DNA of 64,000 nucleotides from Candidatus Hodarchaeota archaeon. Lineage in GTDB: Archaea; Asgardarchaeota; Lokiarchaeia; Sigyniarchaeales; SOKP01. A model generated the notes under the pieces. It worked only from the letters and a program-made list of their open reading frames with translations. It did no database searches and was not told where the DNA came from. A program made the position numbers and the translations under genes. Numbering within the stretch: the first letter of the stretch is position 1; the number at the start of each line of letters is the position of its first letter. The stretch spans positions 64,001 to 128,000 of the forward strand of contig JBHLJY010000006.1 in the NCBI GenBank assembly GCA_048887225.1, read 5' to 3'. Shown piece by piece: positions 26,839 through 28,191 of this stretch.

Positions 26839-28191
26839 GGCTTCTTCAACCCCTCTTCATTTGCCATTACAATAACGGCTGCATAAGCGGCTCCTGGACC
26901 TCCGATCGAATGAGCAATGGACCGACCTTTTTCAATTGTGACTTGGTGTTTGCCAGCATCTCCTCTAATCTGAAGAGCGGCCTCTCCTGTGCTCATTATA
27001 CCAGTCGCGCCCACAGCATGTCCACAGCCAATTAAGCCTCCCGAAGGACAGCATGGCAATTCACCATTTAGCCAAGGACCTTCGCCGGGCTTTTCGAAAG
27101 AATTTTCAATCCAAGGACCGCCTTCTCCGAATGGTACAAAGCCTAATTCTTCATAAGAAATTACTTCTTGACCGCTAAACGCATCGTGGAGCTCTGCAAC
27201 ATCGATTTGTTCCTTAATCTTGTTGTAGTCGAGCCCTGCCATTTTATAAGCTGCTTTAGCAGCTTCAATGTTTGAATAAAGCCGACCAATGCTCTCTCTG
27301 TTTCCGATAAAACAATCTGTATTTGCAGCAGCGACTCCGGTTATCCATGTAGGCTTTTCCACGCCGAGTTCTTTTACTTTTTGTTCGTTTGCAAGGATTA
27401 ATGCGGCAGAAGCCTCGGAATAAAGACAGCAATCCAGGAGTTTGAAGGGATAACAGATAATTCTTGAGTACATAACGTCTTCGACGGTTACCTTCATTGG
27501 CGATTGAGCCTTTGGGTTGAGCAGAGCGTTCCCATGATTTTTAATGGAAACCATAGCCATATAAGCCAAAAGTTGAAAATATTCAACTGATTGTTTGCTC
27601 TTCGGTCGGGTTTCCAAATTCTTTGTAATGTGCATTTACCATAGAAACATATGAAGATGCCGCCATCATGCCCATAGGATATTTACGGAATATCGCGAAA
27701 TGCGAATTAAATTCTTTCATAAGTCATATCCGCAGAATAGGCAATGGCATTTAATACTTCTGGTGTTGTAACTCCTGTTTGCTAACGCTTTAAACTAAAT
27801 ATTTACAAGATTCGTCATAACAGTCGTTACATTTCTCCAAACCAATGCAGAGACACAAATCCGACAATCCAGATGCAACTTCAGCATAAGCCATTCTCAC
27901 AGTATAACCTCCCGTTGCTCCGCCCGACGCAATTCTCGTGCCAGGTTTGTCATTCATGCCAAGATAACTATTAGTAAATATATCGGGCATGAATTGGCGT
28001 TCAAAAAGCTCATTATAAATTCCATAAACCGTGGACTGCAAATCTTTATGTATAATCTCTGCCCCGTTTTTATTTGCATCATCAAGAGCCAATCTAGTGG
28101 CATCAAACGCCAGCTCAAAATACGTTTTATCAAGATACCTTGCTCTAAAAGGAGTAATGCCTACTCCGATTATCGCAACTCTATTTGGCAT
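26835..28191 (-). CDS. Intron-containing SCP-x-type thiolase-fold protein; exons 28191-27811, 27781-27716, 27681-27595, 27560-26835; 419 aa after splicing
   Basis: Joined frame reads ...LEKCNDCYDE|QTGVTTPEVLNAIAYSADMTYE|YPMGMMAASSYVSMVNAHYKEFGNPTEEQ|MAMVSIKNHGNALLNP..., collinear with the six paralogs in the window; HDAF and GHAVG motifs present. Confidence 0.9.
27561..27594 (-). other. BHB mRNA intron 3 (34 nt)
   Basis: GAGC AA^A CAA...UUG GCUU AU^A: helix GAGC/GCUU, inner stem AGUUGAA/UUCAACU; removal restores the frame. Confidence 0.86.
27682..27715 (-). other. BHB mRNA intron 2 (34 nt)
   Basis: UAUG AA^A GAAU...AUUC CGUA AA^U: helix UAUG/CGUA; removal restores the frame. Confidence 0.86.
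27782..27810 (-). other. BHB mRNA intron 1 (29 nt)
   Basis: GACG AA^U CUU...AAG CGUU AG^C: 4-bp helix GACG/CGUU with two 3-nt bulges; removal restores the frame. Confidence 0.88.

Follow-up and report, generated by a model that had tools for sequence, protein, structure and literature searches.

A predicted tRNA-type intron breaks the reading frame of a thiolase-fold gene in a Loki-type archaeon

Introduction

The closest described system is the intron of the cbf5 pre-mRNA in Crenarchaeota, a short, ORF-less BHB intron within a coding sequence (Watanabe 2002; Yokobori 2009, PMC2738675). The cbf5 introns are 16-44 nt long, often have a relaxed motif, occur in hosts with a hetero-tetrameric EndA and are patchily distributed across relatives. 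The BHB intron of HVO_1309 in Haloferax volcanii is also an mRNA substrate of the splicing endonuclease, but it lies in the 5′ UTR and breaks no reading frame (PMC7714728). The same 2020 study names cbf5 as the sole earlier archaeal mRNA case. Introns with the same motif and of similar size have been described as non-canonical and multiple tRNA introns in TACK and Asgard archaea (bioRxiv 10.64898/2026.10.13.758758; PMC5829648), where they have arisen by repeated lineage-specific gains alongside an (αβ)2 EndA with an L1 loop. The introns of those papers sit in tRNA genes, and the word “mRNA” is absent from the main text of the preprint. In the literature searched, which mostly excluded subscription journals, no paper on Asgard mRNA introns was found, and cbf5 stands alone as a coding-sequence intron spliced by the archaeal endonuclease.

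The window analysed here is a 64,000-nucleotide stretch of contig JBHLJY010000006.1 of a Candidatus Hodarchaeota archaeon, whose closest named relatives are Promethearchaeota (Loki-type) genomes. It contains a thiolase-fold gene with three frame-breaking inserts, and the second of these, intron 2, is the subject of this report. Intron 2 is very probably a real tRNA-type mRNA intron, spliced by the tRNA-splicing enzymes, as judged from sequence. It resembles the cbf5 introns in size, relaxed motif, host EndA type and patchy occurrence. It differs in that the host is an Asgard archaeon rather than a crenarchaeon, the gene is metabolic, a single mRNA carries three introns whose splicing is predicted, and the insert sites across the orthologs number 11 as opposed to one. 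As with HVO_1309, the mRNA would be a substrate of the splicing endonuclease, but here the reading frame is broken. Repeated lineage-specific gain and the EndA type are shared with the TACK and Asgard tRNA introns.

The Host Gene and Its Three Inserts

The host gene (28191-26835, minus strand) has a Pfam Thiolase_C match, with the NCBIfam thiolase-domain families falling below their cut-off. Alignment with its orthologs reveals three inserts of 29, 34 and 34 nt (Table 1). Their removal yields a gap-free protein of 419 amino acids that shares 404 of 420 positions (96%, stop included) with the uninterrupted ortholog L002. Retention of any single intron ends the protein at 133, 151 or 181 amino acids, and thus all three must be removed for full-length translation. 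There is no close intact paralog, as the next match in the genome is only 36% identical.

Table 1. Predicted features of the thiolase-fold locus and of related inserts (window positions unless a contig is named)
Feature	Position	Strand	Remarks
Exon 1	27811..28191	-	codons 1-127
Intron 1	27782..27810	-	29 nt; BHB GACG/CGUU; in-frame stop; site holds other inserts in several relatives
Exon 2	27716..27781	-	66 nt; codons 128-149
Intron 2	27682..27715	-	34 nt; phase 0; frame-breaking; in-frame UAA as its third codon
Exon 3	27595..27681	-	87 nt; codons 150-178
Intron 3	27561..27594	-	34 nt; BHB GAGC/GCUU; in-frame stop; only in this genome among orthologs examined
Exon 4	26835..27560	-	codons 179-419 and stop; Thiolase_C domain
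DUF35/ChsH2-like gene, downstream	26341..26838	-	start overlaps thiolase stop
Intron 2, central 4-bp helix, exon 2 strand UAUG	27718..27721	-	
Intron 2, central helix, intron strand CGUA	27684..27687	-	
Intron 2, 5′ bulge AA^A	27715..27717	-	predicted cut 27716/27715, from BHB geometry and homology register
Intron 2, 3′ bulge/loop AA^U	27681..27683	-	predicted cut 27682/27681; paired in lowest-energy fold
Intron 2, intron stem, 5x1 internal loop and inner hairpin	27688..27714	-	stem GAAU/AUUC 27714-27711/27691-27688; inner hairpin UCGC-AUUUC-GCGA 27705-27693
Enclosing exon 2/exon 3 hairpin	27662..27748	-	predicted fold
Proximal helix GGAU/AUCC	27731-27728/27680-27677	-	
Distal 12-bp exon 2/exon 3 duplex	27748-27737/27675-27662	-	
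Six further inserts, host genome (G000)	C1:83789, C1:321204, C2:89799, C2:89906, C5:191663, C18:43842		
Short thiolase N-terminus matches, two relatives	G001:C6:190242-190325; G003:C257:24543-24617		first in L037-L039 region

As the host is a metagenome-assembled genome, the inserts could be a sequencing or assembly artefact. This is extremely improbable: over 2603 nt that take in all three inserts, a Logan contig (L336, from a public run) matches the locus without a difference, so that they are not a quirk of one assembler (although both sequences may rest on the same reads), and inserts of this class also occur in 31 further orthologs, which come from many samples.

A second reading is that the gene is a recent pseudogene, whose inserts arose as hairpin-generating errors of replication and are never spliced. 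The occurrence of introns 2 and 3 in a single genome is in keeping with this. Nonetheless, it is very unlikely, as each of the three inserts fits a BHB at its homology register (chance of approximately 1.5%, 2.8% and 2.2%) and the gene carries no other lesion. With three orthologs as the reference, dN/dS comes to 0.024-0.037, matching pairs of intact genes (0.035-0.036); these values span the whole branch with dS near saturation, such that a very recent inactivation would escape them.

Structure and Register of Intron 2

A preliminary description of the locus had parsed intron 2 as a BHB with a strong inner hairpin and a relaxed outer helix. The minus strand from 27721 to 27677 reads exactly as it was given there; the central helix UAUG/CGUA forms four of four pairs, both bulges are 3 nt long, and excision of the 34 nt joins DMTYE to YPMG, matching all orthologs. 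The inner hairpin is less exceptional than described, with an ordinary stability of -4.3 kcal/mol (z = -0.62 against shuffles). Homology permits three registers for the insert, the BHB register among them, an agreement reached at approximately 3% (2.8-3.1%) of random positions. With the predicted cuts two bases into each bulge, the exons join correctly and the gap-free 419-amino acid protein results. A group I, group II or homing intron is ruled out, since 34 nt is too short for a ribozyme core or an encoded endonuclease.

The intron side of the motif is predicted to form readily in a local context. The central helix has a pair probability of 0.72 in a 420-nt fold, and the half-motif of central helix, 5′ bulge (AAA, closed by GAAU/AUUC) and intron stem lies 0.3 kcal/mol from the local ensemble. 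In an 800-nt fold this half-motif is a minority state, with a pair probability of approximately 0.08.

The exon side is indeed relaxed, being predicted to resemble a bulge-helix-loop with a 6x3 internal loop. The displaced GGAU/AUCC pairing proposed earlier is a real helix, but it is not the only exon-exon pairing available: the lowest-energy fold lengthens it to GGAUAU/AUAUCC and thereby pairs the 3′ bulge, and the 12-bp exon duplex lies beyond it. Intron 2 thus departs from the strict hBHBh′ motif. The pairs adjoining its 3′ bulge run paired-open-open-paired, and the 3′ side is closed through the displaced helix, across the 6x3 loop, rather than by a direct exon-exon helix. It agrees with the relaxed HBh′/BHL forms, having a central helix, one true bulge, an intron stem, a loop on the other side and a broad-specificity EndA in its host.

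Relaxation of this kind is found throughout the insert family described below. Two exon-exon pairs adjoin the bulge in 12 of the 32 distinct inserts; the exon helix is relaxed in the other 20, and the outer helix of intron 2 is therefore typical of the family rather than a peculiarity. The opening of the 3′ side to the 6x3 internal loop costs approximately 4.9 kcal/mol, towards the upper end of what the family shows (0.3-6.5); the median for random windows that hold a chance helix is 9.8.

Order of Splicing

Since the folding predictions show the 3′ cut site as paired, something must open it. It had been suggested that intron 2 may depend on the prior removal of intron 1, becoming a substrate only afterwards. 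The predicted pairing of the cut site is what speaks for such an order, but constrained folding of the pre-mRNA in four splicing states lends the dependence no support, and ordered splicing is very unlikely. In 420-nt folds the intron 2 motif costs 0.30 and 4.94 kcal/mol both with and without intron 1; in 800-nt folds the costs are 1.65 with and 1.66 without it, and 4.83 kcal/mol. Intron 1 lies 66 nt upstream, and no helix of intron 2 reaches beyond its two flanking exons, 2 and 3. Motifs just as relaxed are found in orthologs with one detected insert (L007, L102, L105, L109, L196 and L209), and single-insert orthologs cost as much or more to open (5.5 kcal/mol in L102, 6.5 in L196 and 5.1 in L006). 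Removal of intron 1 first would, moreover, be expected to bring ribosomes into intron 2 and unfold its motif.

Splicing Enzymes and Proposed Mechanism

The host genome encodes the RtcB ligase and two EndA paralogs of 201 amino acids, located at C1 near 186.7 kb and C3 near 61 kb. The alpha subunit has the A. pernix alpha subunit (3P1Z) as its best match (E = 5e-35) and retains the catalytic triad, with Y142, H150, K181, R174 and W198 all conserved, together with the loop motif KPR, in which K59 aligns with A. pernix K44. The second paralog is without the catalytic His. This loop and its lysine have been shown to permit cleavage of bulge-helix-loop substrates (PMC3241643, also the source of the residue roles), and the Asgard EndA has been reported as an (αβ)2 type with an L1 loop (PMC5829648). 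By its sequence, the host enzyme fits the (αβ)2 type with the broad-specificity loop lysine. The subunit type, which had been left as a point to check, is thereby assigned, and the earlier expectation that a relaxed motif would call for a broad-specificity endonuclease gains support from a genome that encodes one.

In the proposed mechanism, the exon 2/exon 3 hairpin would keep the ends to be joined close to each other. EndA would bind the half-formed motif, whose central helix, 5′ bulge and intron stem would form readily. The enzyme would then open the 3′ side into the 6x3 internal loop, creating a bulge-helix-loop-like substrate, and cut following the second base of each bulge, after which RtcB would join GAA to UAU. 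Each intron would be recognised locally, without a fixed order.

It has also been noted that the host rtcB gene (L333, C13:33460-33488 region) is itself split, within GVGY-DINCG, by a 29-nt BHB insert with a UUGG/CCAA helix and an 8-bp stem. The rtcB of relative G002 (L355) has this insert too, differing by two changes that preserve the pairing; in most of the other relatives searched the match is uninterrupted. RtcB would then be required for the splicing of its own mRNA.

Inserts across Orthologs and the Genome

Among 167 distinct orthologs, 32 carry a total of 41 inserts, all 29-35 nt long, which represent 32 distinct sequences at 11 sites. The central helix forms four of four pairs in 25 of the 32 sequences and at least three of four in all of them. 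An in-frame stop is present in each of the 19 inserts with a length divisible by three (11.1 expected from shuffles, though related inserts are not independent of one another). A synonymous exon change at site 381 is matched by covariation in the central helix, which is GACG/CGUU here and GAUG/CAUU or GAUG/CGUU elsewhere. Covariation is visible at sites 381 and 444, the neighbours of the intron 2 site, 447. The inserts that relatives share diverge in sequence yet hold their pairing, a further point against the pseudogene reading.

Intron 2 has no homolog among the 167 orthologs; a search for it with its flanks at up to three mismatches in 150 related genomes found it in the host genome only. 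Being unique to that genome, it is without covariation of its own. No donor copy was found in the genome, in tRNA genes or elsewhere, when four sub-fragments were searched at one mismatch; the matches at two to three mismatches looked like chance. The ARAGORN calls of tRNA introns were not reliable enough to allow a strict comparison with intron 2.

The 11 sites form five clusters (34/35, 381/384, 444/447/460, 534/542 and 920/925), and no site is more than 13 nt from its nearest neighbour. Clustering this tight never arose in 200,000 uniform draws, in a test that assumes independent sites; intron sliding would cluster sites too. Different insert sequences lie 1-13 nt apart in these clusters, several within conserved motifs such as HDAFSGQE. 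In many ortholog inserts the inner stem is capped by an A/U-rich five-base loop (AUUUC, AUAAA, AAUUA or AUUUA), hinting at a shared insert architecture.

Translational bypassing, in which ribosomes hop the inserts on an unspliced mRNA as in T4 gene 60 or the mitochondrial byps, would suit three inserts that are all in phase 0 and each have a hairpin and an early stop. However, the take-off and landing codons mismatch (GAA/AAA, GAA/UAG and CAA/UAU), many inserts of the family split codons (sites 34, 35, 460, 542, 920 and 925), and the 4-bp helix between exon and intron is left unexplained, so that bypassing can hardly be entertained.

The insert class extends beyond this gene. A census over 1538 gene pairs, with a genome of the same genus (G009) as the partner, found a strict BHB in 7 of 12 frame-breaking inserts (0.72 expected); among frame-preserving indels, the control, the count was 3 of 60 (3.35 expected). 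The thiolase-fold gene accounts for three of the 12 inserts. The census covers 2.7 Mb of G009 and is a lower bound, as introns common to both genomes are invisible to it. Six more frame-breaking hairpin inserts of 30-33 nt, absent from G009, were located in the host genome (Table 1); four have a strict BHB and two have three of four central pairs. Two relatives also have short stretches that match the thiolase N-terminus at high identity; these occupy very short open frames close to the ortholog and are possibly further interrupted paralogs.

Origin of Intron 2

A similar enclosing hairpin folds in the intron-free orthologs L098, L002 and L003, indicating that the exon helix is older than intron 2. 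Among intron-free genes, the intron 2 site ranks at the 93rd percentile for enclosing pairs, and 7 of the 11 sites fall in the top quartile. On these predicted folds, the pre-existing exon hairpin may have been the landing site of the intron. The gene tree places the host gene as sister to seven intron-free orthologs (support 0.99), which makes a gain on the host lineage the simplest reading; the tree was used only for this local placement, since inserts in loci that were de-duplicated are missing from its labels. Most likely, intron 2 was gained on the host lineage's own branch, into a hairpin that the mRNA already had.

At the other two introns, the spanning exon pairs of the host exceed those of its intron-free sisters (16.3 against 1.9-10.0 at intron 1, and 10.9 against 0.3-6.8 at intron 3). 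These stronger helices suggest either synonymous sites adapted to splicing or capture by hairpins specific to the lineage, and they are a further difficulty for the view that the gene is a pseudogene.

Implications

Eukaryotes use the same chemistry on the HAC1/XBP1 mRNA, with ligation by RtcB in animals. A metabolic gene of four exons, with 11 insert sites among its orthologs, suggests that protein-catalysed mRNA splicing would be routine in close archaeal relatives of the eukaryotes. Asgard annotations would then miscall such genes as split genes or pseudogenes. The clustering of sites in pre-existing hairpins also makes the origin of BHB introns testable in mRNA.

A broader proposal, tentative and somewhat doubtful at present, is that Loki-type Asgard archaea possess a general mRNA splicing system on the tRNA machinery, with hairpin-gained introns, gating of expression and feedback through rtcB. 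If so, introns of approximately 30 nt would have been gained repeatedly at pre-existing mRNA hairpins to give multi-exon genes. A sequestered 3′ cut site, such as that of intron 2, would serve as a rate-limiting or condition-dependent gate of the operon, and the rtcB intron would couple the capacity of the system to its own output.

Other Features of the Locus

The thiolase-fold protein has ASGGATGG where thiolases usually carry the nucleophilic Cys, and HDAF and GHAVG are kept. The DUF35/ChsH2-like gene is followed by a gene of 122 amino acids (26338-25970, minus strand) with no Pfam or NCBIfam match, and an exact look-up of the 266-amino acid downstream ORF returned no record. The 3′ end of intron 3 (UGGCUUAU, region 27570-27553) resembles the start of exon 4 in the orthologs (AUG GCU UAU) and also the 3′ end of the inserts at the neighbouring site 542. 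An origin of intron 3 by duplication or sliding is possible.
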